DNA from: Raillietiella orientalis
Lineage: Eukaryota
NCBI GenBank assembly: GCA_036172245.1
Contig: JAYWIR010000078.1
Location: forward strand, 248,001-312,000
DNA length: 64,000 nucleotides
Direction: 5' to 3'
Shown: in pieces, positions 31,601 to 62,331 of the stretch
Layout: each line of letters opens with the position of its first letter
Numbering within the stretch: the first letter of the stretch is position 1
Made by a program: the position numbers and the translations under genes
Notes under the pieces: generated by a model
What the model saw: the letters and a program-made list of their open reading frames with translations, nothing else
What the model was told of the DNA's origin: nothing
The model's database searches: none

Positions 31601-31748
31601 GAGCGTTGGAGGGCACGGGGCAATTGCCTCCTCGAGTGGCACCCAGCGCTGCGGGTTCGAGTCCCTCCCGTGAAGGATCGACAGCGAGGGTTCGGAGTCT
31701 CACGCGCAAGATGACGCTGGTTGACCCGTATTCGGGGGCAGCACTGGT
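31601..31748 (+). mobile_element. tRNA-derived SINE, 5' part (copy B); resumes briefly at 32291-32311 after the LINE insert
   Basis: B-box GGGTTCGAGTCCC at 31653-31665, followed by GGATCGAC...CAAGATGACGCTG...GCACTGGT shared with 43953-44137 and 60795-60968. Confidence 0.65.
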
Positions 31749-32290
31749 TGGCATTCGGTCACACCGGGCATTTATTTATAAAATACACGTCTGCGGCAGG
31801 ACGTTTGATCCTGCCACGTTACTTATAACTACGAGGGGGAACCTGCCGGGAACTGGCACGCGGGTCAGCGGGGTTGGCTTTCTCATCACAAGGGAAGGGG
31901 AGACAAACAGAAAGATAAAATGAAACGAAAAGCATGCAGTCAAAAAAATGGGGGATCCGAGAAGGAATCCCTGTATGCTGAACTATGTCCTCTGCATCCT
32001 TGTAAGGATGCCGACAAGTTCCCAGATAGGGTCATCTTGACGTCATCCTCATGAAGAGGACATCAAAATAGATGGCGTCCCTGTCGTCCTGGCCTCTGGC
32101 GTTGCTCCATGAAGCCCCACGGTCCTGCCGCGTGGGCAGCAAAGTGCTGCTAGGGATGCGGCCAGCGTGAGAACGTCGCGTAGGAAGAGGCGCTTTCAAA
32201 CGGCTCTGGTGTTACCACCGGGGGTTCCAAGGGTCTCGGCAAAGCATACCCGAAGGGGTAGGAAGAGAACACAGCCCACTAGGAGGTGCG
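31749..32290 (-). mobile_element. L1/Tx1-clade LINE 3' end, 5'-truncated (copy B)
   Basis: Homologous to copies A and C. Contains PHLLVGC...LRVCFAETLGTPGG, the 3'UTR stem-loop (31793-31817) and AATAAA (31771-31776). Flanked by the direct repeat GCACTGGT (31741-31748, 32291-32298). Confidence 0.75.
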
Positions 32291-32311
32291 GCACTGGTGG
32301 AAGTCGGAAAC

Positions 32312-32353
32312 CCTCGACTGCGGCATTGAGCAAGGGCAATGCCGCAGTCGAGG
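32312..32353. repeat. perfect 17-bp inverted repeat, 8-nt loop
   Basis: CCTCGACTGCGGCATTG-AGCAAGGG-CAATGCCGCAGTCGAGG. Confidence 0.9.
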
Positions 32354-35300
32354 ACGGAAACGGAGGAGCGATCGTTGCTAGATGAAAACTCAGTTCCCAA
32401 AGCAATAGAGCGTCACCCACTTCACCGGAAAAGAAGCTCTCGTGCAAACAACGCGTCCTCTTTGCGGTTGAGCTTTCTTTCTTTCTTCACGAGCTGCTGT
32501 TGGTGGCATCTCTGGCGCGTACCACCTTAGTTTCGTGATAATGCATGCTGCTCAGCGTCGCAAGCACTTTTTACGACATCGCAACCCGAAATCGCCGCCA
32601 TGGATGGTGAATTTATTATGATGGAGGCCGTTTCGGACGCAAAATAAAAGTAAAAAAAAAAAAAAAAAACTGCAGTCTCTTGGCGCACGCAAAAAACATC
32701 GGGAATAAGAAGGGAAGAACCTTCATTTTAATTTTAAATGATAGCAGACACAAAAAAACTGCAACGTTGCCATGGCACTGAATACCGAAAAGGCACGTCA
32801 CCGCCCTTACTCATTCCCTGCACAAAAGACTCCTGTGAACACACATACGGGATGGAAGCGACAGGTACGTTTGCGTGCGTGCGGGTCTGCGAACGTGGAT
32901 CCACTCGCTGGGTCCACATCGACCTTCCTTTGGAAGCAAGAACCTGAGAATCTTCACAAGGGTATTAATGGGAGCAGGGAGGAGGAGTCTTGGAAGTCTG
33001 GAGACGGAATGCCTTGGCTCTTCGCTTCTCAGCCAAGAATTCATCGAGTATTCCATGAGTTTCCATAGCCGACTCCAAGCACTCTCCTCTGGCACGACGC
33101 GTCTTGAGTGTCGAAGACTCCTGCCACATCCGCATTTTTCCTCACTCTGCATCCCGTTCTCCAGCCACCTGAATCCCCCAACCCTTGCGCTTCTTTTTGT
33201 TAAAGGCGGGATCTCAGGGTTCCATCAAATTCGCTGCGTAGAGGAAACGCCCCGTGCTGTCTAAATATCGGTGCAGAAATGGGCGGCTGGAATCCACGGC
33301 CGCAGCAGAAGTGCACGGAAGGGCATCCCTGAAGCTACTGTCTGGTTTTCGGGAAGCTTCAAGTTCAGGGCAGTGCTTAAGAGGATAGGTTTCGCATCCC
33401 CAGATTGCTCCAGTGCGATCCTGTTTGAAATTCCAAGGGAACAAAAGGAAATCCGTTTTTTTCACGATGATGGCACTGACCAACTTCGTAAGATAAGCAA
33501 ATCGAGCAGACCCGGGACCCCGACACGTCCCTCTCGATGGAACAAACCAGCCTTGTTTATGTGTCAGGACACGACGTAGGCATTTTGGAACCCCGTCGCG
33601 AAGAGATAAGAGGAGTTGGTGACGAGATTCCTTACTACGAGAACGCCACCAAAAAGTGGAAGGAACGGATCCGTGTTCTCAGTCGTGGTGGCCTCTTCTC
33701 CTTTCCTCAAGAACTCTCCCACCCCGACGTGGTACGCCTTAGAAAAACCGTGCCTTGACTTGGCTTCGACTGCAGAAACACCGGTGGAAACACGCGTTCC
33801 GCATGCCGCCTTGCGTGTGCTTGGGATCTTAGCAAGACGTGGCATGATGCCTGGAAGAGGGCGATCCCTCACTTTTCCTCGCAAGTTCTCGTTCCCATCT
33901 TAGTTGGTCCTCCTGCACACAATTCCTTTGGTTCCCACCATCAGCTTTCGCTAACATTGGTCGCTCCTATCACCACAACACCTCCGGCACGTTTGACGCT
34001 TCAAAGTGTCCGAAAGCGATATTTGAGGAGAGGAGGCTGCTTTGGCGTGCGTCACTTTTCCCGTTTCGCTGGATACGCTGCTCTCGTGAGACTGCAGCTG
34101 CAGCTTACAGACGAGTGCGATCACTCTGGCAATGCGCACGTTGCAGCACTGGAACGCGAAGCGCCAGGAAGAGGGGAAGCAGTACACTGGAAAACCGTAG
34201 ACATCAGGGCATCCAGAACATGTCACGTTTTCTAGGCAAGTCGAAGAATACCATTTGTGGGTGATACAGTGTTCACCAATCCACAAAACGTCTTGAATAC
34301 TAAATGATGCTTTAGTGGTCCTTAATTGTATGTATCCCGGAAATCACAGATGTGGCTCACTAACCAGATAAATAGCTGCAAGTGCCCTTCCCTTAATGAT
34401 TTCAAAAGGATCGCAAGTCCCGTCAGCATAAGCTTGTTTTAGTCAGGAGCAAGGTAATCTTCAGGAGTTCCAACAGCAAAACAACAACAGTAAGCAGCTT
34501 TTCATTTTACAACATTCTGTCTTTTCTAATAAGACAGGGCTGTTCCTGAAATCAATAAAGGAATAAATTCGTAAAGCAATTTCGTGTTCTGCAAGTACTT
34601 TTTCGTTTGCAGCCAGCTGTTAGGGAGGCAAATAAACACCACGCAGTGCCTCCTTGTTGTTAGTTTTCACCACGATATCGGGACCTTTCGTCCTGAAAAC
34701 AGGACAAAATAATGCTGTCATAAAATAGGTATATGCTAAAGATATCCTTAGTCCATGTATCTAAAGGGTGCCCTGCACCCACGAGTCACTTCCTTTGGAA
34801 CCTAACGATGAGTCACAATCCTATGGTCGCAAATCAACCCAGAGGTGTCTGCTGAGTGATTCGTCTGCACAGGCGTCACAAGAGGTCCTTGTAGAATCCT
34901 GGATGTTTGCTAACGAGTGCCCAGACGAAAGAGGTTCATTCACAAAAACCACACGTCAGAGGGCAACGCTACCTGGAGCGAAAATCGGTGATTCGAGGAA
35001 ATTTAGAAACTTTCTATCCCATTTCCACGACAAGTTCAAGACTGATAGATAGCAAACCACGAAACGAAAGACCTGCAAGTCTTTAATCAACGAAGAGCGT
35101 TGTTAAGTCCGCGGCTGTCTCCCGAGGAAATGATTGCAGTTGGGTCCATTTCAAAATGCGGTCTCTTCCATAGAAAATAGACGTTGAATTTTAATCTGTG
35201 AATCGAATTATCAACTACGGACCATCGCTCGCTGAATGAAGGAATGGGTGGGGCAAGATTTCCTCATATCCCCAGCCCCAGTCTGAGAGGAGAGATTCTT

Positions 35301-36757
35301 GCAGGATTTTCCTAGCATGCACCATCCCAAATTTGAGTGATCATGCAAAGAATAGTCTCATTAACCCGCTGCCATTATTTATAAATCGATCCATATTCGG
35401 CAAATTGATCGGAATGTTTTTAGAGTTGACGGGAAATGATTTTTGTTGTTCGATCTCTGCATGGACTTCAATAGAAGATCATGCAGGAGATTTCAATTTC
35501 AAATCCGGAACGTGCATGCCTGCCACGGAGGGGGAGCTTTCTTCTTCCATAATTTTCCTTGCACCTGCCACACGCGGAAAGGACAGTTAAAAAAAAAAAA
35601 AAATATGCTATCGCACATGCACGGTTTCTTTGCGTCATTTTCGAAATTTGTTTGCCTATTTCGTGTGAGGAGGTTACTTGAAATGTCTCGCAAAGGGAAG
35701 AAGAATAGTGCTCGTCTGATTATCACATCTGGAGTGCGGCTCAACAGAAAATCTCTCCACCAATTGATTCGCGTGAAGTCGCCTCTCCAGATGCTCCTGA
35801 AAATACCTGCATGCTTCCAGATTCACGAGATCCGGTCTAGTCTTCATTTACCAGCTCTTTCGTATTTGCCTCCATGTGATTCTTCCCTGCCTCTCATCGA
35901 GACTGATGAGTCCACAAAAGAAAAATGCAAACAGTCAGCGAGATCAATGCATTGCTGGTAGAAAACGCTATCTCTCCGCCCATTGCAAAACTGGAATTAA
36001 GAAAATTGTGGAATTTGAAACTCTCGGCTTCCTGAAAGCTGTCATGTTCCATATTGGGATGTCTTCGGTACCCATGGAATGGTAACCTGAGATCTCGATG
36101 CTCAGGTTCCTGATGCTGCTGACATGCTGTACCTGTACGCAGGCGAGAGGGAGAAGCCAATGCAGGAGGGATGCAATCTTTTCATAATGCACGTATCTCT
36201 GGTACAAGGCACCATCCGACTCCCAAATCAGTTATTGTCATCAGCTGCTCACTGTGTCCGGAATCGAGTTTTCAGAAGAGACTCCCTCTTGCCTGGAATC
36301 GCAAGAGAACTTTCTCAGAAACAAGTACACACGGCGTGAGCGACGACCCAGCCCAAGCCCAAGAAAAGTAGGCACACTTCGAGAAAGGCAAGCCTAGGGA
36401 AAGAGTCGCGGGCCATGATGATCGCTGGATGATCAGATGATTCGGATGACTCTGACTTCATTAAGCATGTTGCTGTTCTTGTTGCTACTGTGTTATCGCT
36501 GTTGCCGCTGCTTCCGTTATTGCCAATAATAACTGTTGCTGTCGTTGCCGTTATTTATGCTCTCGATTGTCCGTCCGCCGATCTCAGCGAAACTCGAATG
36601 TCTCTCGAGACAAACGCCGCGTTCCGCAGCGATGACCAGCGAGCGCATGCAGCCCCGCGGTCACCGGTCGAACGAAGAACGTGCTTTCATTCTTGAACAT
36701 GTCATTTTTTTTCGCCCGCCGCCAGTGGTCCTCTTTGTAACGTTCCAGTACTTTCAG

Positions 36758-38342
36758 ATGTCAGCAGTTTGCTTTGTTTGCAACTTGCCGATTTTGAATC
36801 ATCAGGTCAGCCTTGTGTGGCAAGGAGGAAATGGGATAGACGAGATCATGCAGATTGTGGCCAACAACAGGCGGCGCGCGTCGGCGGATGTCACCGTGGT
36901 GCAGACGCAGAGGGAGTCGGGAGCCCAGATCTCCCCGTGCTTCCCTCAAGAAGCCCACGAAACCTCGCCGCCCATATCCAGGAGACGCCAGAGCTCTCTT
37001 GCTCAGCTGACTGACCTGATTCGAGACTGGGGGCTGGTCAATCGAGAAAAGGACAGCTCCAGTAAAAAAGACGGCGGCCCGGTGCTGTCCCGCAATGAGA
37101 CGCTCGCAGATCTCACGAAGAAAGATGCCAGGAGGGAAACTTCCCTGCTTGAAAACATCCCCGACAAATTCAAAAGGCTCGGCAACTCTTCAAACGCGAA
37201 ATCAAGACGCAAGGCGAGGTCAGACTCCAAAGCCGACATCTCCAGAGCGCTGTTTCGGAAAGATTTTGCCGACCTGAGGCAAGGAGGACCAGAGACAACC
37301 AAAAAGCTAAAGATGGATTCCACCACTCAAGTGTATTACAAGGCCCGCCAGGACATGATTTCCAGCTACCCCGACGAGTACAGCGTCTTCAAGGAGCAAA
37401 AGATAAAGGAGAAGAACAGCTCCAAACCTACCATTGCTATCAGCAAAATTTCTCACAAGCAACTCAAGAGACAAGATGCAGCCACTGAAGAATTTTCGGC
37501 TAACTACTCAGATGGCAACAGGCATGCGTATTATCCTCAAGCACCCGCAGAGAGAGCCAAGAACCCTCCCACAGATCAGCCCAAAGTCAGCATCCCCATA
37601 TATCTAACGTGCGAGACAGGGAACAGTGAACTCAAAGTGTCAGTAGAAGGGAACTCGACGAGGCAAAATATTCCAGAGTTAAAATACCCCCTCCGGGAAG
37701 AGAAAGAGGATGGAGAAAGTCGAGGAGCAGAGGCGTATCCCAACAACGATACGAATCCAACCGAAGAGTTCGGTGCTCCTAAAGCAGCAATGCTCAAGGC
37801 GAGTGTAGCAAAAGATGCTGCTGCTACTACGAGAGATTCCAAAGCCAGACGACTGTACGACATGTCCAACCGAAGGAAATCATCAAAATCTCCGTTATCC
37901 TTTGATTTTTCCGAAGAAAAAAGGTCTGTTTCAACTGAAACTTCCACTACAAGCACTGAAATCACGTGCTTGAGTGAAAAAACAGGCCATCTGAAACAAA
38001 GCTCGGATGATCTGTTCAAAGATAAGTCGGTGAGGAAACCCCCAAGAAACAGATCTGATACTTCGTCATCGTGTAGTTCAAGAGATACTTCGCCTCTACC
38101 ACAGTTGCCATTACTAAGACAGAGTACAACGGAAGAAATCTTGATTGCCAGAGGATTTCGCAGGCAAAGCACAACAGAAGACATCATGCGCGCTAGAAAT
38201 TTCAGACGTCAGTCTGTACAAGACAGTGAAATATCGAGGACAAGGGAACGAGTGGATTCCATGGTTCAGATTACGGATGGCACAACAGGCACCATGACCG
38301 TGGAAACCATGAATTTCGCCGTCGACACTGCCACCCAGACAG
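36758..38342 (+). CDS. rad: radish-like RapGAP protein, first visible coding exon (N-terminal CxxC and long region rich in RRxS motifs)
   Basis: Lies within the 633-aa ORF. tttcag|ATG start MSAVCFVCNLPILNHQVSLVWQGGNG; LLRQSTTEEILIARGFRRQSTTED...; donor G|gtgagt after 38342 (phase 1) matches the next exon. Confidence 0.85.
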
Positions 38343-40699
38343 GTGAGTGGATCATGCCGCTGGTAGGCAAGGTGCGAGTTTCTGAGGCATCAGGTGCTTA
38401 CCCTAAAGCTCTTGCATGCAGGCGTACGCCCGGGTAAGGGGCTGCACTCCATCTATCCGTGTGTGTGTGTGTCTTTTGTTCCCATATTCGTTTTCCTGCT
38501 CCGAATGGCGCTAGCGAAGCCCTCGCAGCATCATCAGTGCACACCTTATCGCCTTTCGAATGTGTGGCTTCAGAAAGTTCACATCTTGAGCGTGGTCCCC
38601 CTCGTGGAACCTCCGAAACTTGCCCTGTGTGCACGGGGCACTTAGCCTTCGAGGAAATCGCACTCACGAGGATAGATGGCGGCACATGAATGGCGATCGC
38701 AAAAAAGGAACGTCTCGTGGGACGTTCTTTGAAGAAGAAGAAGAAGAGAAAAAAAAAAAAAAAAAGGGATAGGAAAGCGGCGACGACGTTTGCCGCAATT
38801 TTCGTGTCATCAGCCTTGCCTTTCCCATGGCACAGCACGAAGAACCCACTTTTACGTCATTACTCTGCGTAAGGATGGTCGGAAAACGAGAACCACCCGC
38901 TCCAGCCACGGAGAACGCTTCAGGTTAACCTTGCCACTGTTCCGCTTCTCCCACACGATAGTGGATTCTGGATACTCACCCTGTACCGAGAATAAAGCGT
39001 AGGAGTGTGTGGGGTAGCGACGGTCATGCGATGCTTTCCGATCGCTGAGATGTCACGCGTGCTTCGAAGGGCACGTTTGGTCACTGCTGCTGGCTCACGA
39101 AATGCTCGTTTCCCTCCTTGCTGGATCGCTGCTCCAGTCGCTTCGAGCCGGATGCACTTTTGAGCTTCACGTCACATTTTGATGTACTTGCTGGATGTTC
39201 ATGCGTAAGCATTGGTACACGAGTACGGTACTACGCATGTTCCGAGAAGTCGATTTTCGTGCCATTCATCCCGATTGTATGACGGAAAATATCCGAAGAA
39301 ACTACTTGTTGATGTGAAAGTACAGTGATTTTGTATCAGACGAAGTGTCGACATCCCCGATCTTTCGAATTCGTCAAGGCAGTTGTTTTTGATGCAAGTG
39401 GCTGGAATTCCCCGCGAAGGAAATGATGTTTCCAAGCGTTTCTCCAGATGAAAAGCTTTGCAAACTTGCCTTATCATAACAGGAGCCACAAAAAATCGGA
39501 GCACGATCCCGGCGACATTTCCCCTTTGAAAAGTGCGAGCCTTTCGCAGAGGAACGATGCTCCAGGAAATCCGCTGTCTCCCAAAGAGGAAGGTGAGTCT
39601 CTCCCTGCAAACCGCTGTGAAGTTGGCGTTCGGAATGAGTGATGTACACGTAGGCCGTGCGAATCGGTACGTGTACACGGCGGAATTCGATTTTCGTTCT
39701 GCGAGGGCACGGATCGGTTGAGATTCTGAGGGGTGAAATCGATACCGTGGTGCATTCGCGTGCACGCCGCCGTGGGGTGATTCGCGTCTTCGCGTGGAGA
39801 TCCCGCTTCCCGCGCGGCGGATGTTCCCTCTCCCGTGTTCCTCTTTTCCCCGTGCAGCCTCCAGCTTTGTTCCCTGTGGGAAAAGGACGGTTCCGCAAGG
39901 CTGGAAAATTCCGTGTATTCCTCATCCGGGAGCGTACCCCCATCGCGCCTTGGGGAGAAAGCGATCTCTCACGTCACCCCTTTATCTGGCTGGTCCCCTC
40001 ACTGCAGAAGAAGGCTTGGCTTGTCGGAAATGTTCCTGGACGTGCGTCGAGCCTTCCGTGCGTGCCTCTTGCGCACCCATGAGGGCACGCTGTCTCTCTT
40101 GCCTGCGAGGCTGTCCCTGCCGAGTGACGACAACTCGGGTGGGGCTCCTAGTTTTTGCTCTGCGAGAGCAACCCGCCGCCCTGGGGTAGGCGAACGGATG
40201 GCGAGTGAGCTGCGTGACAATGCCAGAGGAATCCGGGGAAGCGGGACTGATAGAAGTCTTCCCCTCTCCCTGCGGAGCCATCAGGGCACACTCCTTTCCG
40301 TTCCTCTGAGTTCTCCTATGCAAGAGGATCCTTCGAGTTCCGCGGTACCCCTTCCAACCCGATCGAGGAGCTCCTGCTTTCCCACGACCCCTGAGCCCAT
40401 GTGTCCCAATCGACACCGCTGTGGCGCCCCTCCCCCCTTCCCCACCCCCTCCGAGGTGGTAAGCAATGCCTAGCGATGCCCAGCTACGAGCTCACGGGTT
40501 CGTTCGCTTCCTCACCGAGAGAGTGCAGTAGGAGCGAATCCCAACAAAGGAAAGGAAAGGAAAGGAGCCGTGGTTTCACCCGCCGCGCTACGATCCAGCG
40601 GTCCAATCCATCTTTCAGCTAGCTGCGCGTGTTGCGTGCGCTCCGCGCCGTCGAATCCAGGCACGCGGGGCCCGTCCCGTGCCAGCCGTTGGGAAACGC

Positions 40700-41000
40700 G
40701 CCCGCCTCCACCTTTCTCTCCCTCTCTTCCCGACCTCCCCACGTCTTTTGCGTGTAATCGCGTGCGCACCCCGTTGGGTTCCTCCTCGGACGTGCGGCCG
40801 AAGCCTCATCGAATGTCCGGGAAGATGCTCTCGGGAATTCGCATCGGGATGCCGAATGGCAGGCAGGCCCCGATCCCGGACGCATCCCAAACAGGTCCCC
40901 GCTGCATGAAAATCGATGCCCGCGCATTCAACGGGAAACGGGGTCATCCGCTGCTCCGCAGTGCGCGAGGAACTGGCAGGATCTGGGCTGTGGGGACGGC
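40700..41000 (+). mobile_element. L1/Tx1 ORF1-like relic (intronic)
   Basis: KMLSGIRIGMPNGRQAPIPDASQTGPRCMKI...GTG fits +SG.R.+.M....IP....G...+.Y.G...C..C..GH. Confidence 0.4.
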
Positions 41001-42369
41001 GGCGAGTGGGGCGCTTGCCAGGACGGGATTCCCCCTGAGGGAAGGCGGTCCCCAGGGTCGGCACGTTGTCCCACTCTGGAAGAAAGCGGGAATTCGTGGC
41101 GCGTGTTGGGACGCCGCGGCCCCTTTCCTGAAGAAGGAGGAGGTCAGGATGAAGCACCAGCGCCGTTGCCAAGAGACTCTTGAACCGAGATGATGAAAAG
41201 GGAGGACGATGAAGATGGGAGGGGGAGGATCGGGAGAGGAGGCAGCGACGGCGGCGAGGAGGAGGAAGGAGGGAGAGGGAGGTGTTGATCGTCATGGAGA
41301 ACGCGCTGCACCTCCGCGCAGGCGCTGCTGTCGTCACGCCAAAGCCGACCACTGCGGGACGCCCTTCCCCGCGACTTGCGTCACACGAAGATCCTCTTCC
41401 GGTTCCCACTCAAAGATACATCTCCGTCCGGCGGCGGTAGTGAGGCTGCATCGATCTACACGTCCAGAAAGCCTCCGATCTCCGGATTTTTCGAATTTAT
41501 GGCTTCAGCAGCTGTCACGGAGACGGGGAGATGGAAGCTCCTCTTCGTGAACCGAGGCAGGGGGAGCCCTTCACACATTTCCAGACGTTCCTGGAAATTT
41601 TCACGTGCCCCGAGGAAAGTTCCCGAATTTCCCTGTAGATCGAGGGTGGGTGCCTCTCCCGCCGCGCCCTCTGCGAAAGATCCTCCGCTCGACCTCCGAC
41701 GACGACCTGTCCCTCCCGTCTTGACGTCGTCACCACCATCCTGGGGAGCTCCCTCATGGGACAGGCCTTTCGCCTCGAGCCAATGCATCCCCGACCGCCT
41801 CCGGAGGGATGCAGAGAGAGACGACGGTCGGTCTTCGGGCTGCATGTGCATCCGGGGGTGCTTGCTTCTTCGGGGCGGGAGGAGGTTACTGCTGCTGCGG
41901 ATAATGATGATGACGACGATGATGATGATGAAAGGGCTATCGAATCTTCTCGCCCTCGGATGGAGCGGCGAAGATTCGATCTCCGTTTTCGAGGAGATTC
42001 AATTGGGTCGCGTGGTTCTCCCAGAATCACTACACCGTAAGGAAACGGAGAGCGCGAAGAATTGGCACCGCAAAGGGAGGGGGGGAGGAGGGTCAAGGCG
42101 AACCAAGGGGGTGGTCAAGGAGAAGCTCTTTGCGTAAGGAGGAACCTTCGTTTGCTCGCTTCCTGCCTGTCGCGTTTCCCGACATGGAGAGACGCTTATG
42201 ATGTCACCGGAAAGAAAACCGGTCGACGGAGGAACGGCAAGGTGGGACGGGCGCTTCCCCGGGAAGCACGCGCAGTCGGGGCGGGGTCCGTCGCCGCGCT
42301 GGGGGTGTCCTTCGTGTCTCCTCTCCATCGGGTTGCTTGCGGCACTCTGGTCGAGAGGTGCTTGGCCTT

Positions 42370-43892
42370 CTAGCTGAAAGGAGGAGTACATCTGTTCCGT
42401 GGGCTCCCTGACGAACATGGAGACGGGGGCTGCAGTCATCCTGTTTGGAAAGAGTGGGGCCGTTCCCTACTGATCGGAAAGAAGGTCCTTCGCGTGAGAC
42501 CCATGGAGGATCGAAACCGGCTTCCCGAAAAAAGGATTCTCCCATCCTGCTCCCCTTCCCTTTCCCTCCTGACTCCCACATCCAGATCGCGGACTGCGGC
42601 CTCTTGCAGGTCCCCTTGGAAACGCTTCCAGGAGCTCCTTACCCCCTCATGTCTGGAAGGCTTCCGCTAGAACCGCCTCAGGGGAACATGGAACATCTAG
42701 CGTGCTAGTCCCGCCGTCGGGAGGGTGCATGGCTTTGCTCACTTCGAAGGCGGCGCCACACCGAGGGTGCAGCTACCGGAAGTGGATCGCTGTCGGGCTG
42801 GTCGCACAGAGGTCACCGGGCCGAAAATCTCCCTCCTCGAGCCGCATGAACGGATCGCAGCGTCTCCCGAAATGAAAAACGGCCTCAGGAGTGTGCAGGA
42901 GCAGGAACCTTGAACCAAGATGCCCGACAGCGAACCGAGGCAGGAAGGAGGGGACGCCGGAGGGAAGGGAAGGGCTGGGTCGCGCGCTCGCGAGCTCTGA
43001 GGGAGATAGAGGCTCAGCCTCCCTGGAGGAAGAGCCTTTGAAAGCACGCGGGAGAGGCGACCACGGTCCCTGCGGAACCTCTGCGGGAATCTTCCCGAAC
43101 CCCTCGGAGGGAGGATAACCCGCGAGTTTCCCACTTTTCCTGTTCCTGGAGCGCTCACCTGTCGCACGGGACCGAGGCAGCACGCAGTGCCGGGGGAGAA
43201 GGGGGGGGAACCTCCTCGAAAGCTCCGCGGGCGGTGGCACAGCCAGGGGGCGAGCTCAGAGAAAAGGGAAGCCTCGTGTGCCTGTAGCGCTCTTGGGACC
43301 CTCCGCGGACGATGGCCTGGGGAGAGCGACTGCAAATGGGCGAGACGATGCCCGGGAAAAAAGTCCCCCTCAGGCGAGCCTCGGTCGGGAGAATTCTCCT
43401 GCCCGAGGAAACGGGCGGGGGGCGGAGCAGGGAAAAGGGAGCCAGTTCCGAACTCTTCCTGGAGGCTGGGGAGGAAAAGTTCGACCCTAGCTTTGGAACC
43501 TGTCGGCGTCCCGGGCGAGGACGGAGGGAAGCGGTCCTCAGTTCCGGGAATTCGGATTTTTGGACCGTCGTCCCGAAACCCCACGGGAGGCAAACGTCCT
43601 TTTCCGGGGAGTGTTGCAGCCTCCGCCTTCCTGGTCACTTCTCGAGGGTCGCCGGTGGTCCGTGAACCCCAGCTTGCCTGTAGAGATTCCGAAGGGATCC
43701 AGGCGCAGCAGCGAGTGATCAGCGGGGTTTTCGTGACTCTGGTCGAGAGGCTCATCAGCCAGCAACAGCTCCCGGTGAGGCAGGTGGCGTGCCGGAACCT
43801 TGCAGCAGCTGCCTACGCAACAAGGTTCCGGCTGTTCTGTTCTTTCGGGTTCGCGAGGTGAGTAGGGGGGGGATATTTAAAAAAAAAAAAAA
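42370..43892 (+). mobile_element. ORF1-like retroposon relic ending in a hairpin and poly(A)
   Basis: EEYICSVGSLTNMETGAAVILF and CRSRNLEPRCP remnants; 12-bp hairpin GCCGGAACCTTG...CAAGGTTCCGGC (43791-43832); A-run at 43879-43892. Confidence 0.4.
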
Positions 43893-43952
43893 GGGCCAGA
43901 GAGGGAGATTTTCCGCAGTTTCCGCAGTTTCATTGATTTTTTCATCTTCGAT

Positions 43953-44640
43953 GCCCGCGCTGGTGGTCGCGCGGCTGCGATATCCTCCGCGCTTGGCACC
44001 GGGCGTCGCACGGATGCGAATCCCACCCGGGGAAGGATCGACTCGGGAGAAATGGGTGCGTCATGGGTTTTGAGTTCCCTTCCCCCCTCAAGATGACGCT
44101 GCTTGGCCCCATGGACTTCGGGTGCAGTAGCACTGGTGCAAGCCGGAAGCCCCGTTGATCGACCGGGAGTGAAAGTCGACCTTCCGAGGTTCTTCCAGGA
44201 ATCAAGGAGCGCCGGTTCCCTTCGATTATGAAAATGGAGACGAGCTTCTTTCTCCGAGGGGGATCCCTCTACATCTTGTACCCCACGGAGCTGCTGGTGG
44301 ATTGATGATGCTTCTCCAAAGTGTGAAGAAGCGCGCTGCTGCTGCCTCCGGAGAGCGGCTCTTCAGATAGAAGTCGGGAAGCGTCCCTTCGGGGATCTCT
44401 TCGGAGGAGGAAATAGGGAACAGTCTTCCCTTCGGGGTTCCTTCCCAAGCGCGAGAGGAATGGACTCCTTCCTCCGGAGTCCTTCCTGGACTTATAGGGC
44501 GGTCCCCTTTAGGGGGTACTTCCTTCAACTTGAAGAAGAGCTGCACGCGCTCTCGGGTGGACAATTTTAAGGAGCTTCGTGAGCCCTCAGGCGGACGGCG
44601 GTTCTTCAGTACTGAGCGAACCAAAAAAAAAAGAAAAGAA
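43953..44640 (+). mobile_element. uninterrupted tRNA-derived SINE (~670 bp + A-tail; copy D, empty target site)
   Basis: A-box-like TGGTCGCGCGG (43964-43974) and degenerate B-box GCGAATCCC. The body is collinear with 60795-60968 joined to 61891-62331. A-rich tail at 44623-44640; GCACTGGT at 44130-44137. Confidence 0.7.
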
Positions 44641-46374: not shown

Positions 46375-46405
<31 letters not shown>

Positions 46406-47300: not shown

Positions 47301-50300
47301 TCGCAGGAAGTGGACGCGGCCGTGATCGGAGGACACTCGCCGCGACCTCAAGGGCTTCGGCGGACGGTGACGCGCCCGACTCCGCTCCGGGTTTCGCATC
47401 CAAAACCCAAAGGGAGTTCCCGATCTTGTCCCAAACCTCAAGAATCCCTCTCGTTTGCGTCAACGAAGATGCCAGTACTGATTTTTTTTTTTTTCTCTTT
47501 CTTTCTTTTTCCGAGCGGAAATTCCACTTCTTTTCTAGAACGTTCTCCTTCCGCGCGCTACCATCAGGGACTCGGAGCATCGATCAGGAAAGGGAAAGAT
47601 CAATTACAATGATGCAACTATTGAAAAAGAGGATGTACAAAATATAAGAATATGCTTGCGCCCCTCGCACCACACACACACACGATGTTTGTTATGGGAA
47701 GTGACGATGGCTAGAGGGTGGGGAGGGGGGGACAGGAAAAAGTCGATGATCTAATGAAGGAAATACCTCATTAGATCATTAACATTTATGAATATGGACG
47801 GGAGAAAAACGAGGCAGTCAGTGATAAATGTTTGCCTTGAGGCCCGCTGGGGTGACATTTGCCGGAGCGTTGTGAGCGCTCACAACGCGCGTTCGGAGCT
47901 TCCGAAACTCGCATCCTCCTCGCTTGGCAACGGGCTGTTTTCGTGACGCGTGAAGATGCGGAAAGTTGTTCGAAGGGAGAAAGGGAGAGAGATCCCCGAG
48001 CCGAGGTGTGCTTCCCTCGTGGCTGACGACTAACGCCCCTGCGCGCGTCCCGGCAAACACGTCCTTGTGACTCAATAATTCATTAGCAGTTCCATTAAGT
48101 CACAGTGCATTTTGCCGCATCGGCTGTGAGTTCACGAGAAGTGGCTGCTGCCTCCTCCCTCCCTCCCCCCGTGAGTGAAGCTGCGGAAAGCGCAGCTGAG
48201 AGAAGGACCTGCACAACTGCTGATTTCTCTCACCATGCGGTTCGCGCAAAAGACGTTTGAGGCAGCGGAAGGAAGAGCGAATTCTTCTTCTTCCGCGACG
48301 TGAAGTCCGCATTCGCAGCCATTGGTAGAGCAGGAGGTTCCTGGGCAGGCCGTTGCTAGGCGTTCGAGAAAGGGGGAAGGGGAGGGGCGGGGGGTTGGGG
48401 GAGGGAAGAGCTCGTGATAAATTGTGGACTGAGAATCGTGAACTCCGGAAAGAATGATGACGATCCTCCTGCCATTGGTGACGCTGAGAACAACGCTCAT
48501 TTTTCAATGATGCCGTGACGCGATCTGCCGTTGCGATTCGGTTCGCCGTGAGCATGCAAAAAGCGCGCGCCGTCGAAAAACGAAACTCGTGGATGAAAGA
48601 GAGATGCGGAAACGAAACGGAAATTTGTGAGCCCTGGAATTCAAAAAACAGTTTCATGAGGCAAGCTACTGTGGCAGATGGACCTGTCTGACGGAACTGC
48701 AAGAGCGCGAATCTTTCATCCGTTATCAGTATTGGCTGTATTGCTTACGAGGTTCACCGGGAGATGCATGCATCACGTACTCTGTAGGAATTTGGATTGC
48801 TGGGGTCTTCGCTTCATGTCTGGACCAAGATGAGCACTAAGCAGTGTTCATCCTCCTCCTCTCCCTTGTTTCCCAAACCTTACGTCACTTGTCCCTTTTT
48901 TTTTTTTGGATGCCGTACAGAAGCACTGATCAAGGGTGGCATTCGCAATGTAGTGAGTCAGTCCATTCGCATGTGCCACCCCTTTCACAGGTTGCAGCCG
49001 GACTGCGTTCTGGGAAGAAGGGGAAAGACTTCCACGGTGAACTCACTCTTCCAGCTCGTGGAAGCGATGTAATAACTCCGTTTCCTCTTTGGAAACGAAA
49101 AACGCATGTAATGGTACACCTCTTGCATGACCGATTAAACATAGGTGAGATGCAAAAATCATAGGAAATTCCGGCGTGTGACGGGCGCATGCTCGAATCT
49201 GATCTGCAGCACGTTCTTTGACAAGATTGAGCAAGAGATCAACTGCTAGGATAGCAATGCAAGATTGCTGACGCTCACGGCAATCGTCACTATCATCCCC
49301 CCTCCCTTTTTTTTTTTTAAAAAAAAAATTCTTTGCTTCGTTTCTGCCCACATTTTCCCGAGATCTCTCTCTCGTGATGACATAGATGACGAAATGGTAC
49401 TTTTCTGCTTCCATCATGGCTCGCGGCACTCGAGAGGGCTATTCAAGTCGTCTTCGGAAGGTCAACGCAGCTTTCGATGATGCAGTGACATTTAGCAACC
49501 ACTTGTTGCCAGTCAACTATTTAGTAAGCACTTTCAGTGTCGCCGTTGACTCCGGGTCTTACTAAACGGGGAACGGTGACCATGGCAGCCTCCACCTTTC
49601 CTCCAATTTTCGGCTAGCCAATTCTTCTTGAGTTGTAGTGGTTAACCCTACTTCGAGTAGCGAGGCAAATGGGAGGCTTTGTCCCTCATTTCTTGTTTTG
49701 CTCGAGAGACTCATCTTTACTCAAAGCCTCCGGATTCACTGATGTCAACTGCCGCTCGTATCAGGGTTTTCTATGACCTGCTGTCCTAGCTACTACTCGA
49801 CCCGCTACTAATGCTAATACTAAGAATCTTGCTGAGACTGATGCGTTCAATGACGCCAGTGTGGCTGGGAGCTGAGTACTGTAGCTATTTCCACCGCCCA
49901 TGCTGGGGCTGTTGGCAAGGCCTTCACCAGCAGGACGCGATGTAGAGGTCGATAAATGCTATGGCCAGGAGGCAGATGAGGAATTTAGGCAAGAGGTTGT
50001 AGAGAACTATGGGAAGACTCAAGATGTCTTGTTCCCTAAAGATGTACATAACTCGAATCTAAGGACTTTCAGCCTCGTCAAGACCGATCAAAGCAAGAGC
50101 TGCCTCATGTCCGCTCGAGTTAACATGGCAACAGACTCATCGCTAGAAAATGAACGGGAGCAGCTTGGAGAGTTACTGAGGTGAAGATTTAGCAGCTGAG
50201 TGAAAGCAATCGAGTTGATAAGTGGGAATCTGAACCTAGGATCGCCGTATTGAAATCGGGAAGTGTATCTTAAAGAATAGCAAATGAAACTTTGAAGCAA

Positions 50301-53400: not shown

Positions 53401-54333
53401 AAGAACCTGGGCATATAGCGGGGGAGGCTCGAAAGGAAGGGGAGAAGGGTGCATGCGTCGCACGCAGAGCGTGGGTTCCGACCCGAGCAATGCAGAGATC
53501 TCGGCTTGGCCGCTTGGGATTCACGTCGCCATCCTTCAAGGAAGATATTCCCTCTTTTCTCAGTGCGTTTGCGTTTGTGCACGGGAAATACCACCCTTGC
53601 CACCCCTTTCCCTCCTCCGTCGAGCAGATGGCTGCCGCTCCGTGTGCTCGAGGAACGTTGTCTATGGATCTGCGGCCTAAATCCAAGCACGCGGTTCCAG
53701 GGGCCAGAGGACCCTTTCGGTTCGATGCAGGACGCCAATGCTTGCAGGCAGCAGGCTTCTGGATCTCCTCCCCCTCGTCATCCATCGGCCACGGAAGCAA
53801 AGGGAGCTTCTAGACATTCGAGGAAGGAGAATGGTCGTGGAAGAAACGCCACCGGGAAGATCCTCGGGATGCGAGCGAACAGAGGCAGAGAAGGAAAGAT
53901 CTGAGAACCCACATGCGGTGGAAGCGAAGATGCTCTTCCAGGAGACAGGAATCGAGATCCACTCTACGAATGGTCGCGCGGGAGAGGGAGGCGTTCGCTC
54001 CTGAAAGGAACGAAGGCACGCTCCCGGTCCGAACTTTTTGATGGTCGGTGCTCTCATGGGGCACGTACACAGAGCGAGCCCTCCGTGGTGCAGCTGCTCC
54101 CGGCTCCCGACCTCTTCTCCAAGAGGTCCTTCCGAGGTGCGGCGCTGCATCCTCGGACTTGGACGCAGGGGGAGGGAGGGAGAAGGGGGAGATCGTCGCG
54201 ACGGTCCCTGGACGCGAGGGACTCTTGCGGCCCAACGAGATCGCAGGACTGAGCCAAAAAACCCGGGTCGCCAGCACGCAGCGCGTAGGTGTTCCACGGG
54301 CCACTGCTACTCCTGTTTTTTCTTTTTTTCCAG

Positions 54334-54609
54334 ATTCTGCTTCCTTGTACAACAACAACCACTACCACGAGGAATGCCTCCGCTGCGATACGTGCGGTTC
54401 CGACCTAACTGGACCCAACCAGATCAGAGTGCGGAGGTTCAAGAACAAGCTGTTCTGCGACCTTCACTTCGCAGATGTTGCCCGTCTGGAAAGCACCGAT
54501 TTCATGCAGCAGTTGCGAGGCTTCAAGTCGCAGAGCCTGGGATGTGCCGTCGCTCGTCGGAAAAGCTCAACCACGCTTATCTTCCCTCTTCCCACCCAAG
54601 CCTGCTGCG
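54334..54609 (+). CDS. rad: radish-like protein, exon with LIM-type zinc-binding region
   Basis: tttttttccag| acceptor; (D)SASLYNNNHYHEECLRCDTCGSDLTGPNQIRVRRFKNKLFCDLHFADV...RRKSSTTLIFPLPTQACC; donor G|gtgagt; phase 1-1, 276 nt. Confidence 0.92.
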
Positions 54610-54819
54610 GTGAGTCGTTTGCGGCTGCTTCATCACCCTGCACGTCCTGCACTTTTGCCTGCATTTTTCTCTGCTCCCTTCTCTCCTCCTCCCTTCGCTT
54701 CTTCTTGCCTCTCCTCTCCTCTCCCTCACCCTTTTTTTTTGTTTCTTTTCTCCACGGTGGCAATGCTGCTGTGCCGAAATGACTGGGAAGACCCACCGAA
54801 GTTTCCACACGTGCTGTCT

Positions 54820-57239: not shown

Positions 57240-57545
57240 ATCTCCATCAACTAGTTCTTCTCCTCTTCTTCCTTTTCTTTTTTCTTCTCTTCCTCCTCCT
57301 CCTCCTCTTTTTCCCTTGCGCCTTCACACTTTCTCCTCCTCCTTTCCTCCCTTCCTTCTCTTCTTTCTCTTGCAGCTCCTCTGTTTCTCCCTTGCATTTA
57401 AACACTTCTCTTCTTCCTTCACATCTTCACACTTTCTCCTCTTCTTTCTCTTCCTTCCTCCTCCCCCCCTTTCCTTGCTGCTCCTCCCTTCATCGCTTGC
57501 ACTGCCACACCTCCTCTTCCCTCCTTCCTCCTTCTTCCCCTGTCC
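57240..57545. repeat. polypyrimidine (CT/CCT/CTT) low-complexity tract; similar tracts at ~9935-10015, ~11540-11690 and ~60500-60560
   Basis: Almost purely C/T on the + strand. Confidence 0.85.
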
Positions 57546-58821: not shown

Positions 58822-59068
58822 CCGAGGCGTGCGACGAATACCCCCACAGCCTGCTGCCTATTCCCGGATACTGGATAGAATGCCCAAAAAGGAGGAGGAG
58901 CCACTGTGACAAGGAGGCCGGCTCGTACGAAAACCACCTGGAGGAAATCGAGGAGACGGAGGAATCTCCTGAGAAGGAAGCGTTCTTCAACGACTTGGGT
59001 GAGCTGGTGTCCAGAGGGAACGAACTGCCCAATCATCTTCACAGGAAGGCGACGTCTATCGAGGAGAG
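58822..59068 (+). CDS. rad: radish-like protein, exon 3
   Basis: ttcctttgcag| acceptor; (A)EACDEYPHSLLPIPGYWIECPK...KATSIEE; donor AG|gtaggt (phase 2). Confidence 0.85.
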
Positions 59069-60794
59069 GTAGGTTCGTGTTCACCTTTTCTCCGGAGCCA
59101 TCCGCGACGTTGCGCATGGTCTGCGCACCTCAAGGCGCAGCAGAGGAATTTTTCCACCCTTCCTCCTTCATCCCGTCGTATGGTTTCCGAGCTAATTCGC
59201 TCGCGCGAAAGAGAGATGGAGAAGTTGATCTCGGTCCTGAGTCATCTGCGCCGCCGCCAGCCGAAGAGGGGGGGCGGGGATCAAGCTGCTCCAATGGAGG
59301 ATGTGTCTTGGAGCCTTCGATCCACCCGAAAGAACTCGGGAAAAAAAAAAATATGGGTTTCGGAAAGCGAGAGACGCGTCTGAGGGAGCAGCCCCTCGCC
59401 GGCCCGGAAACGCCACCGTCTCTCCCCCTGCTGCCAGCAAGAGCGCGCTGGAGATCTTCAAGAACGCCAGCCTGCTGAAGAAGCGATTGCCGAGCGGGCG
59501 AGATCAACTCGCCCTGAGAAGGAAGAAGCAAGACGGACAGCGGAGTACTCTTCTCTGGCGGAAGCTGGGAGATTCCTCCTCGACTCGGCCAGCAAACTTG
59601 GACTGTTCTCATCTGAAGAGGAGAGGGAGCTCGTTATGTCAAGGCAGGAGCATCATGTCGGCGAGCATCCTGAGAAGTCTTGGTTTAAAAGATGGGGAGA
59701 GGGGAGGGAAAGCAAAGCAGCAGGAGCGACAGCCTTCGATCGTGGCTTCTGAAGCAGCCCTCGCTGAGAAGCATGAAGTGCCACGGTGATTCCATCATAT
59801 CCATGCGTGCCTTCGTGGCTCGCCAGCGCACCCGGTTGACCACCCCGCTCGCCGGACTGCCCAACGTCTCCACCACCACCGCCGCCAGCGTGGAGCGTCT
59901 GCCAGGTTTCGATGGTACGGCAGCCCGCGTGCGCACCATATCAAGGTGCTCTTGGGAACTCTGGGTACTGGGAGGTTGGGTGACCTCTGATGGCGAAAGC
60001 GAACCTCACGGACTCGTTGCGGTGCCTGACGCTCCGTCGTACCACGGGGACTTTCTGGAACTCACGGAGCATGGACTCGAGGAAGTCCAAGAAGCAAGAG
60101 GATTGTGGACACTCCCCCACGACAATTGGAGGCAAGAGAAAATGGGTTGGATAGTAAGTGAAGAGTACTTGGCTACCACGAACGACGCTCAGCAGCCATT
60201 TATCCGAGTAACCGTAGTGCGGACGATGCTCCGTGTCGTCCTTGACAGGATGATCGAGAGAGACGTCCCCTCTCATTTCAGTCTAAAGTAATTTTGGGAG
60301 AGAAGGAACGGGGGGAAGGGAAGGAGGAAGAAGAGAAAAGGAGAAGTAGTGGTTTGGTGCTGAGATGCCCTTCGTACAATTCCGTTGCGGTATTCAGGCG
60401 CCTGGAGCAAAGATTCCGTTCGGGAGCGAAGCAAGCAGGCTGGAATGACTTCCTCCTCGAAGAGATGAAGTCGAGCTTAGACTATGGGCAATTGCAAGCG
60501 TCACTCTCTTCCTCCTTCTCTCTCTCTTCCTCTCTTCCTCCTTCTCTCTCTCTTCCTTTCAGTCCGCCTTGACCAGCAATGACCACACGCTGCCTAACTG
60601 TCGAGCCGAACTCCCACTGTAGACAGGAAAGCTGTTGCTGTGACGGAAGAGTCCACGCCTCTTGTGATTCAGGAAATGCAATGCAATGAGGAACGACCTC
60701 AGCTTGGCTGCAATGAGAAGGTGGAAGAATCAACAGTGGTCCATTTCCGATCCAGGAAGTTTCTCCTAAGGGAAATATGGAGTGCAGGGTGATC

Positions 60795-60968
60795 GCCGCC
60801 TTAACGGCCGTGTGGCTACGGTCTGCGTACGTGCCACCAGCGTTGCGGGCTCGAATCCCGCCTGCGGACTAATCGACTCCGAGAAATGGGTGCGTCATAG
60901 GTGTCGAGTCCCCCCCCTCTTCGCAGGATGCTGCTGCTTAGCCTACAGACCTCGGATGAGGCAGTGGT
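60795..60968 (+). mobile_element. tRNA-derived SINE, 5' part (copy C)
   Basis: A-box-like CGGCCGTGTGG (60805-60815) and B-box GGGCTCGAATCCC (60847-60859), then ATCGACTCCGAGAAATGGGTGCGTCAT, shared with copy D. Confidence 0.7.
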
Positions 60969-61846
60969 TGACACCCAGTCACGCCGGAGCGTTTATTTAT
61001 AAAAAATTAACACACGTGTCTGTGGCTGGACGTTCGATCTTGCCACGTCCCTTATAACTACGAGAAGGAATCTGTTGGAAACTGGCACGCAGGCCAGCGG
61101 GGTTGACTCAGCAGCACAAAGAAAGGGGAGACAAACAAACAGAAAAAATTAAATAAAAAACATGCAGTCAAAAAATGGAAAGGAAGGGGGGTTTGGGAAG
61201 GGATCACTGTTTGCTGGAGGATGTTCTCTGCATCCTTGTAAGGATGTCCTAAAGTTCCTGTTTCGAGGCTCTCAGATGGAGCCATCTTGACTCTGTCCTC
61301 ATTACGAGGACATTAGAATAGATCGGTCCCCTATCGTTCTGTCTTCCTCTGGCGTTGCTTCATGTAACCACGGCCCTGCCGTGTGGGCAGCAAAGTGCTG
61401 CTAAGGATGTGGCCGGCGTAGCGCGTCACACAGGAAGAGGCGCTTTCAAACGTCTCTGATGTTGCCACCGGGGATTCCAAAGGTCGCGGCAAAGCGCCCC
61501 AAAGGGGTCGGAAGGCAATATAGTCCACTAGGAGGTGCGGGAGGGATTCCCGCTCCCCACACCTTGCACAGTTTGGATCCACACACACCCGTGTCCAAAA
61601 ATGCCGGCAGACGTTGCACGGGAGGTCCCAGTACAGCACCCTGCCACTTCAAGGGAAGGGTGCGGTTGCTCATGAGCGCCAGGGTCCACTGCAGATCTTC
61701 CTCCGGAATACCCAATAGCACGCCCCAGCGCAAAAGTTCGCGAGCAATGGGGATTGCAGCGTCGGTGGGATAGCCCATCGTCCACTCGCCCATTCCTCTC
61801 CTCCTTCCGGAGATTTGCACAGTAACCTCCCATCTCACCTTACGGC
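60969..61846 (-). mobile_element. L1/Tx1-clade LINE 3' end with zf-RVT-like motif, 5'-truncated (copy C)
   Basis: LYWDLPCNVCRHFWTRVCVDPNCARCGERESLPHLLVD (C-x2-C-x4-E-S-x2-H, L1/Tx1 ORF2 C-terminal zinc finger); 3'UTR stem-loop at 61022-61046; AATAAA at 60992-60997. Confidence 0.8.
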
Positions 61847-62331
61847 AAGATGCTGCTGCTTGGCCTGCGGGCTTCGGGCGCAGCAATGGTGGAAGCCCGA
61901 AACCGGGTGCCCATTTTGACTGGCTGGGATTGGAAGTTGGCCCTCAGAGATACTTTCAGGATTCAGAATCAAGCAGTCGTTTCCCTTTGGGGCTTCCCTC
62001 CGGTTGTGCAAATGGGGCCGTCCCCCCCTTCTCCGGGGGAGATTCCCTCCATCTCATGCCACAGAGTTGGTGGATCGATACCTCTCCAGAGTGAAGTGTG
62101 AAGAAGCGAGCTTCTCCCTTCGAGGAGCGCCCTTCAGAGAAATTGGGAAGCGTTCCTTCGGGGTTCTTTCCAGAGGAGGAAACAGGAAGCAGTTCCTCCG
62201 ATCCCTGTTCCTCCCTTGCAGGTCCCTCCGGAGAAGAAATATCTGGAGCGGATCCCTTCATCGGGTAAAGTGAAACAGAGTTGAGGAGCTTCGTGTGCCC
62301 CTAGGCGAACAGTTCTTGAGAACTCAGCGAG
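61847..62331 (+). mobile_element. tRNA-derived SINE, 3' part (copy C)
   Basis: Collinear with 44090-44620 (AAGTGTGAAGAAGCG, GGGAAGCGT.CCTTCGGGG, GGAGCTTCGTG.GCCC). Confidence 0.7.

Follow-up and report, generated by a model that had tools for sequence, protein, structure and literature searches.

LINE-like fragments at one nucleotide of a dispersed SINE module in a 64-kb window of Raillietiella orientalis

The DNA analysed here, a stretch of 64,000 nucleotides of Raillietiella orientalis that we call the window, contains the 5' module of a SINE in three dispersed copies (B, C and D) and decayed fragments of a second, LINE-like repeat (Table 1). The initial annotation had described one SINE family occurring three times. 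This holds for the 5' module, which is found in B, C and D, but the body of B is not of the C/D type. Indeed, B shares with C and D only the first ~170-190 nt, and past GCACTGGTGGAAGTCGGAAACC its body cannot be aligned with theirs; a U4-snRNA-like stretch stands there instead, 3' of which are found an AATAAA (32643-32648) and a poly(A) (32652-32669). Copy D, for its part, has an exon of a LIM-domain host gene on either side. The same annotation called the SINE tRNA-derived. B-box-like 11-mers (at most 3 mismatches) are present in B, C and D, and a tRNA origin of the SINE head is plausible in view of the T-arm or B-box-like GGTTCGAGTCC and GGCTCGAATCC, but no significant match backs it: ARAGORN at default settings returned 0 tRNA genes, and the best Rfam match for the head of C, tRNA-Sec (13.4 bits, E 4.5), is not significant, with none for B. 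A partner relation between the two repeats was tested by BLAST, and no similarity was detected between the SINE tail and the LINE-like tail.

The LINE-like copies A, B and C belong to one repeat family, with BLAST identities of 76-78% over 455-585 columns and pairwise identities of 81-82% when gaps are left out. All three are in minus-strand orientation and 5'-truncated; their 3' terminus (at 19870, 31749 and 60969) is the same within 1 nt in 3/3 copies and their 5' ends differ, the lengths being at least 477 bp for A, 542 bp for B and 877 bp for C. An additional weak match at 21201-21247 suggests that copy A may reach further, with extra DNA interposed. The AATAAA lies 22-24 nt ahead of the LINE-like end, the integrated copies carry no poly(A) tail, and the 3' UTR, which measures ~360 nt in C, contains a hairpin of 10 bp that is kept in A and B. 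A metagenome contig matching the 23-nt pattern of this hairpin was set aside as a chance match, being GC-rich and unrelated outside the pattern, and a 25-nt LINE pattern gave 0 hits in genome contigs and 0 in viral contigs. The piece designated E has no 3' terminus and its flanks are unrelated; it probably derives from C by recent, local copying.

Table 1. Repeat-derived features of the window, in order of position
Feature	Positions	Strand	Remarks
LINE-like copy A, 3' part	19870..20346	-	3' terminus 19870 adjoins ...CACCTCCTGGT, non-SINE DNA
SINE copy B, left part	31601..31748	+	tRNA-like head and core, ends ...GCACTGGT; B-box-like GGTTCGAGTCC at 31654-31664
Target-site duplication (TSD) of insertion B, 8 bp	left 31741..31748, right 32291-32298	+	GCACTGGT, exact (8/8)
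LINE-like copy B, 542 bp	31749..32290	-	5'-truncated; AATAAA 31771-31776 (minus strand); hairpin 31795-31817; ORF end with HLLVGC
SINE copy B, right part	32291..32312	+	22 nt GCACTGGTGGAAGTCGGAAACC homologous to C/D; 19/22 vs C
U4-snRNA-like stretch	32322..32404	+	first ~75 model positions; in place of the C/D-type body in B
SINE copy D, uninterrupted	43953..44640	+	A-rich tail from 44623
SINE copy C, left part	60780..60968	+	ends ...GGCAGTGGT; B-box-like GGCTCGAATCC at 60848-60858
Duplicated SINE segment around insertion C, 45 bp	left 60924..60968, right 61846-61890	+	
LINE-like copy C, 877 bp	60969..61845	-	ORF remnant with one frame shift; stop 61331-61333; AATAAA 60992-60997; hairpin 61024-61046
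SINE copy C, right part	61846..62331	+	vs the D body: 76.7% identical, 408 nt aligned
LINE-like piece E, internal 3' UTR, 173 bp	63631..63803	-	97.7% identical to C 61037-61209

It is from this anatomy and from one short motif that the label LINE derives, the ORF remnant having no detectable homologue. The motif had been reported as a zf-RVT-type finger, and a Cys-His arrangement of the CX2CX7HX4C pattern can be seen by eye (CARCGERESLPHLLVDY in C, HLLVGC in B); in C it is encoded at about 61499-61570 in the form CX2CX7HX4(C>Y). The family assignment did not follow, Pfam returning 0 families at E<=10, zf-RVT (PF13966) included, for both ORF pieces of C, and the L1/Tx1 clade to which the initial annotation took the finger to point finds no support in the searches given here. 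A phmmer search of 1.84 billion representatives with the 165-aa ORF piece gave 0 homologues, and word-index protein searches with the 105-aa piece gave 0 among longer sequences and 0 among those of near length. PDB sequences gave 0 matches for one ORF piece and, for the other, two matches to ribosomal uL29 (E 0.6-0.8) which we read as chance; the ESM Atlas weakly suggested a cluster with zf-RVT in 15% of its members (score 0.92). No reverse transcriptase or endonuclease was detected in the 64-kb window, where 226 ORF scans gave only the host LIM domain, and minus-strand ORFs of 45 aa or more in the region lying upstream of copy A (20.3-23.7 kb) showed no reverse transcriptase match above chance; the copies are 5'-truncated and at most 877 bp long, and a reverse transcriptase domain may simply be missing from them. 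Mismatches between copies number 10, 14 and 6 at codon positions 1, 2 and 3, that is, without bias, which is expected of dead copies and lends coding no support. R1-clade LINEs have a Cys-His motif near the ORF2 C-terminus, and the CX2CX7HX4C pattern is also found in LINE clades other than L1/Tx1.

The inserts of B and C occupy the homologous nucleotide (...TGGT^G) of the ~190-nt SINE module. Copy D runs unbroken through ...GCACTGGT^GCAAGCCGGAAGCC, as the initial annotation had stated, and provides the empty site, between 44137 and 44138 (GCACTGGT^GCAAGCC). The account given there of B, an antisense fragment flanked by an 8-bp duplication of GCACTGGT, is likewise accurate: the SINE resumes with GGAAGTCGGAAACC 3' of the insert and continues for 14 more SINE nt past the duplication. 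The C insert does start immediately 3' of GCAGTGGT, at the same point and with a different 5' breakpoint, but it ends at 61845 and measures 877 bp, not the 878 bp first proposed. Here the SINE picks up again 45 bp upstream of the insertion point, not at the point itself, and the two copies of the duplicated segment are identical at 34/45 positions, the differences being 10 transitions and 1 transversion. The target-site duplications consequently vary in length, 8 bp in B and 45 bp in C. That of C is unusually long and diverged, and it has a 10:1 excess of transitions for which the explanation we prefer does not account; these points count against that explanation. Its divergence of 24%, on the other hand, is in keeping with that between the inserts (~18% in pairs) and counts in favour of it. 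At ~190 bp each, the three modules cover 0.9% of the 64 kb, and the probability that random insertion would bring two of the three 3' ends to one common nucleotide, in one orientation, is about 6e-7 by an arithmetic estimate.

Copy A had been noted to abut CTGGT, and CCTGGT is indeed found directly beside its 3' terminus, in a flank that is not SINE. The idea that this flank might be a degenerate SINE was rejected: it is no more SINE-like than other CTGGT sites, ranking 67, 88, 75 and 83 among 112 such sites in comparisons with four SINE flanks. No TSD was found for copy A, where only two 8-mers of the flanks recur, neither of them at a plausible boundary. Within the 64-kb window, two of the three 3' junctions thus fall at the SINE site and one (A) elsewhere. 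Strict SINE specificity, as originally suggested, is not supported; the element would be site-preferring and not strictly SINE-specific, because copy A, in non-SINE DNA, shares only CTGGT with the SINE site. TGGT stands beside the LINE-like end in 3/3 copies, the non-SINE copy A included (the chance of CTGGT being about 1/1024), and the site in C reads GTGGT, not CTGGT. The site is likely determined by a short motif for nicking or annealing, given that the sequence of the LINE-like end is ...TCA^ACCA(G).

From the comparison of the two loci, B and C are best understood as separate insertion events that hit the same nucleotide of the dispersed SINE module, as the initial annotation had argued. 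This reading follows from the differences between their 5' breakpoints (542 vs 877 bp) and between their duplications (8 bp, exact, vs 45 bp, 34/45), from SINE flanks that are more diverged than the inserts, from the unrelated downstream bodies of B and of C/D, and from the two loci being devoid of flank homology beyond the repeats in BLAST comparisons. B and C are identical at 98/147 positions in the SINE flanks vs 440/537 in the inserts (Fisher p=1.5e-4, all mismatches), and they differ by transversions at 30/147 vs 32/537 positions (Fisher p=8e-7); CpG decay cannot be the cause of the excess in the flanks, because the difference persists when transversions alone are counted. The common position and orientation of B and C, and the roughly equal distances between the three LINE copies (81-82% identity), could also be explained by a single ancestral insertion, the SINE and its antisense LINE being amplified as a composite in which internal deletions later gave the observed lengths. 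We hold this to be quite improbable: the composite would have to carry SINE flanks far more diverged than the LINE parts, unrelated downstream bodies and duplications of 8 vs 45 bp, the deletion in B would need to stop exactly at an intact 8-bp repeat, and copy A lies outside any SINE. The doubt may be carried further, to the nature of the repeat itself, which would then be not a LINE but another repeat class or a gene fragment, with junctions created by recombination or templated repair between repeats. The searches made, which brought up no reverse transcriptase, endonuclease or protein homologue, speak for this, as does piece E, a fragment copied without the 3' end; against it stand a common 3' end, graded 5' truncation, flanking duplications and a CCHC-type motif ahead of a stop and of a UTR with AATAAA and hairpin, which together form the anatomy expected as standard from target-primed retrotransposition, and the weak ESM Atlas lead to a cluster with 15% zf-RVT (score 0.92), and we judge it distinctly unlikely.

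Two other explanations accept repeated insertion and differ in what directs it. In one of them, the element would have a loose preference for a short motif, nicking after CTGGT or TGGT, and the SINE hits would reflect the abundance or accessibility of SINEs rather than their recognition. It accounts for copy A, at a CTGGT in unrelated DNA whose flank is not specially SINE-like; it is nevertheless unlikely, as with 112 CTGGT sites on both strands two of three insertions would fall at the homologous SINE position by chance about 2 times in 1000, and as the site of C is GTGGT, not CTGGT. In the other, the element would be guided, in the manner of the Dictyostelium TRE elements, by the RNA polymerase III machinery assembled on the SINE's tRNA-like promoter rather than by the DNA sequence of the nick site. 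The target does contain B-box-like motifs, and the insertion lies ~100 nt downstream of them, much as TRE3 inserts downstream of a Pol III unit with a B box; the distances observed here (84-114 nt) fall within the 40-150 bp range that PMC5911963 describes for TRE3. But the B-box-like motif lies 84 nt from the insertion site in B, 110 in C and 114 in D, so that the site follows sequence homology, not distance: a difference of 26 nt in box distance between B and C (84 vs 110 nt) leaves their junctions at the homologous nucleotide. Moreover, the inserts run opposite to the tRNA-like head, while PMC5911963 describes TRE3 as taking the orientation of the tRNA gene it targets, and there is no tRNA-like sequence near copy A. 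Guidance by this machinery is accordingly very improbable.

The model we favour, with moderate confidence, is that of a non-LTR retrotransposon which inserted independently, at least twice, at the same nick in the shared ~190-nt module of a tRNA-like SINE. The element would nick the SINE plus strand 3' of ...C(A/G)(C/G)TGGT; a second-strand nick 8 bp (B) or 45 bp (C) away would generate the duplications, and 5' truncation would result in the different insert lengths. The initial annotation held that the endonuclease recognises the site, but pairing between the 3' terminus of the RNA (...ACCA(G)) and the ...TGGT exposed by the nick accounts for the same data, and what reads the site may be a protein or an RNA feature. 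Genome-wide, the preference would be strong without being exclusive, copy A having gone into unrelated DNA at a CTGGT. The case for it is made of two SINE insertions and three 3' junctions in all, in one 64-kb window. Could an arthropod LINE family home to one nucleotide of a tRNA-like SINE module through a few target-matching bases of its RNA 3' end, possibly from SINE-resident master copies, so that one retroposon family becomes the regular safe harbour of another? We put this forward tentatively, as a possible but rather doubtful extension of the model.

Precedents for such a relation exist. LINEs of the Tx1 clade reside in other transposons, and PMC4494074 describes Tx1L in Tx1D (piggyBac), Tx1-Mar in Mariner-N4_AMi, Tx1-9_AMi in Harbinger, and Tx1-8_Crp and Tx1-4_AMi in LTR elements. 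As in the cases presented there, a LINE-like repeat recurs in our window at one position and in one orientation of another dispersed repeat, differing truncations mark independent insertions, and the repeat that is hit offers a landing place where insertion does no harm. In contrast, a tRNA-like SINE module is not among the targets named in PMC4494074, whose Tx1 examples come from vertebrates whereas the host here is an arthropod, and one of our three copies is off target. The R1 clade (R1Bm in 28S rDNA, SART1Bm in telomeric repeats) resembles our element in its arthropod host, its precise 3' junction and its lack of a long poly(A) tail. PMC7265360 describes how, in R1Bm and SART1Bm, the point at which reverse transcription begins can be fixed by base pairing between a few nucleotides at the 3' end of the RNA and the nicked target, which provides a precedent for the annealing step proposed here. 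The targets of the R1 clade differ in being multicopy genes or telomeric repeats, not a SINE. A phrase search of the literature for a LINE inserted in a SINE returned nothing relevant, which is weak evidence of its absence from print.

In conclusion, the presence of two decayed LINE-like fragments at exactly the same nucleotide of two SINE copies points to a mobile element that prefers another one as its landing site. LINEs having other transposons as their target are already known (Tx1L/Tx1D, Tx1-Mar), and a SINE target, for which the evidence consists of two insertions, would add to them. The window offers a clean series of filled, empty and filled sites for dating. LINEs with a target preference illustrate a way in which a mobile element keeps the harm to its host low, and interest in them extends to their use in site-directed gene delivery. 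If true, the landing of a LINE in a dispersed SINE would give it access to thousands of harmless targets, unlike elements that are tied to a tandem gene array, and would put to a natural test which of the two, the endonuclease or RNA-DNA annealing, determines where insertion takes place.

The site of insertion lies in a SINE module of about 190 nt with T-arm- or B-box-like motifs, present in the window in three plus-strand copies (B, C and D), and the inserts belong to a LINE-like repeat represented by copies A, B and C and the piece E, of which B and C lie within the SINE copies of the same letter. The LINE-like copies were located by self-comparison of the window and by profile searches; as the profiles were made from these copies themselves, they show only the absence of further copies in the window.

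Positions of the SINE module and of the LINE-like repeat in the window
Feature	Position	Strand	Located by
SINE module copy B	from 31601	+	
SINE module copy D	from 43953	+	
SINE module copy C	from 60780	+	
LINE-like copy A	19870-20346, plus weak match 21201-21247	-	self-comparison, profiles
LINE-like copy B	31749-32290	-	self-comparison, profiles
LINE-like copy C	60969-61845	-	self-comparison, profiles
LINE-like piece E	63631-63803	-	self-comparison, profiles

The junctions described in the initial annotation were recovered: the empty site in D reads GCACTGGT|GCAAGCCGGAAGCC uninterrupted, the B insert is bracketed by an exact duplication of GCACTGGT (at 31741-31748 and at 32291-32298), the C insert begins immediately after GGCAGTGGT, and copy A adjoins CCTCCTGGT. 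The SINE in B resumes as the 22 nt GGAAGTCGGAAACC, 19 of them identical to C. The reading of B as a third copy of the C/D SINE stands for the module and these 22 nt, and fails for the body beyond them, which is unalignable to C or D. This body contains a U4-snRNA-like stretch (32312-32404). Its match to RF00015, confined to the first ~75 positions of the model, scores 32.1 bits against a gathering score of 46, with E 0.0018 when the whole window is searched and 1.2e-5 when a 421-nt segment is; AATAAA and poly(A) come after it, at 32643-32669. The U4-like stretch lies 24 nt past the SINE-homologous 22-mer, and part of it falls in an inverted repeat whose 17-bp arms (32312-32328, 32337-32353) match perfectly. 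The U4-like body may be a chimeric retrocopy, or may belong to a SINE subfamily whose body derives from an snRNA. As to the tRNA origin ascribed to the SINE, the T-arm/B-box-like motifs are present and no model supports the label: ARAGORN at default settings found no tRNA and the best Rfam match reached 13.4 bits (E 4.5).

Judged by its anatomy, namely its 3' ends, duplications, ORF remnant and tail, the insert is a LINE. The 3' ends of A, B and C agree within one base (...GGGTGTCA(A) in A and C, ...GAATGCCA in B) and the opposite ends differ. The stop is followed by an untranslated tail of ~360 nt, in which AATAAA lies 22-24 nt ahead of the LINE end and a 10-bp hairpin survives in A and B but has decayed in C; the integrated copies carry no poly(A) tail. 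The ORF remnant of C, with one frameshift, includes CARCGERESLPHLLVDY, and together with HLLVGC, retained in B, gives the pattern CX2CX7HX4C. The zf-RVT label previously attached to this remnant was not borne out by Pfam, which returned nothing even at E<=10; protein searches found no relative, one giving chance-level matches only, and the ESM Atlas offered a weak lead (rank-2 cluster, score 0.92, 15% of members with zf-RVT). No reverse transcriptase or endonuclease was found anywhere in the window, the sole above-cut-off domain in 226 ORF scans being the LIM domain of the host gene. Such a Cys-His pattern is common to several APE-type LINE clades, and the R1 group in arthropods would be no less natural a guess than Tx1. 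Piece E is a 173-bp internal segment of the LINE 3' UTR, without the 3' terminus, lying 2.4 kb downstream of copy C in the same orientation with unrelated flanks. At 97.7% identity to C (61037-61209), against ~77-82% for the other copies, it is much younger than they are and looks more like a recent copy made nearby than a fresh retrotransposition; a local duplication or a templated repair patch could have produced it.

Several lines point to B and C being two events rather than one, as initially proposed. Their 5' breakpoints differ (inserts of 542 bp in B and 877 bp in C), as do their duplications (8 bp versus 45 bp), and self-comparison reveals no shared sequence between the two loci outside the repeats. 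A composite of SINE and LINE, amplified as a unit from one insertion, would predict that both parts diverge to the same degree and that the body is shared; it is disfavoured, since B and C are identical at 98/147 positions in the SINE left of the insert versus 440/537 in the inserts (p=1.5e-4, all mismatches), and the SINE bodies downstream are unrelated. The CpG content of the SINE heads is higher (0.10 per base versus 0.05-0.06) and cannot account for this gap, because the difference is stronger for transversions alone (30/147 in the flanks, 32/537 in the inserts, p=8e-7). The SINE sequence that follows the C insert starts 45 bp upstream of the insertion point, so that the insert is flanked by a 45-bp duplication (60924-60968 and 61846-61890), identical at 34/45 positions with 10 transitions and 1 transversion. 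This 24% divergence agrees with an old insertion, as the inserts themselves differ pairwise by ~18%. The transition excess far exceeds the ~2:1 between LINE copies, and five differences have A in the left copy and G in the right.

The window (52% GC, no N) is eukaryotic in appearance and also carries a host gene, relative to which all LINE copies are antisense. A disordered 634-aa open exon (36533-38434, +) has 80 insect/crustacean protein matches (best E 6e-72) that bear the names 'LIM zinc-binding domain-containing' or 'SRRM1-like', and another exon, at 54042-54779 (+), encodes a LIM domain (PF00412, E 3.3e-6); these homologies mark the host as an arthropod. SINE copy D falls between two of the gene's exons. 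Two GC-rich blocks, 10000-16000 and 40000-48000 (57-64% GC versus 39-45% elsewhere), carry, on both strands, numerous long stop-free frames that overlap, none matched by Pfam, and look like compositional islands rather than genes. Self-comparison also revealed a 71-bp inverted pair (30054-30124/30298-30368, 87%), a 136-bp inverted pair near the LIM exon (53205-53340/54865-54991, 75%) and a short tandem duplication (57302-57523, 73%).

Under random insertion, the chance of two of three LINE 3' ends falling at the same SINE nucleotide and orientation is ~6e-7 by our own arithmetic, the SINE module making up 0.9% of the window; a genuine insertion preference, drawn from three junctions in one window, is therefore likely. 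Strict SINE specificity did not hold: the preference is not exclusive, and the flank of copy A is not SINE-like. None of 10 local alignments of this flank with the SINE exceeded the maximum of 100 shuffles, and anchored alignments ranked it 67, 88, 75 and 83 among the 112 CTGGT-ending 40-mers of the window. The A junction shares with the SINE site CTGGT right at the LINE end (chance ~1 in 1000). The 10-mer GCACTGGTGG, the B target site, also occurs at 19692-19711 (+), 160 nt from the end of copy A, probably by chance since the surrounding DNA has no SINE similarity.

On the LINE strand the junctions read TCAA|ACCAGG (A), CCA|ACCAGTG (B) and TCA|ACCACTG (C). Either the endonuclease would nick after TGGT, or the 3' bases ACCA(G) of the LINE RNA, its own terminus or a carry-over from a SINE-resident master, would anneal to the nicked end and fix where reverse transcription begins; both readings fit the junction sequences alike, and pairing of the RNA end has precedents in R1Bm and SART1Bm, according to the available text of PMC7265360. 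It is unlikely that a TRE3-type ruler based on the Pol III complex sets the site: the junction lies 84 nt from the B-box-like motif in B, against 110 nt in C and 114 nt in D, and the LINE orientation is opposite to that given in the available description of TRE3.

A literature phrase search for a LINE targeting a SINE returned nothing useful, which is weak evidence of absence. Tx1-clade LINEs that target a transposon family are established, as the available text of PMC4494074 describes: Tx1L inserts into Tx1D and Tx1-Mar into a Mariner family, while further members use Harbinger and LTR elements. The target here is a SINE, whereas no SINE is among the targets named in that text. Given these precedents, the candidate element described here, with its preference read from three junctions, is a probable addition to the LINEs that target another transposon.
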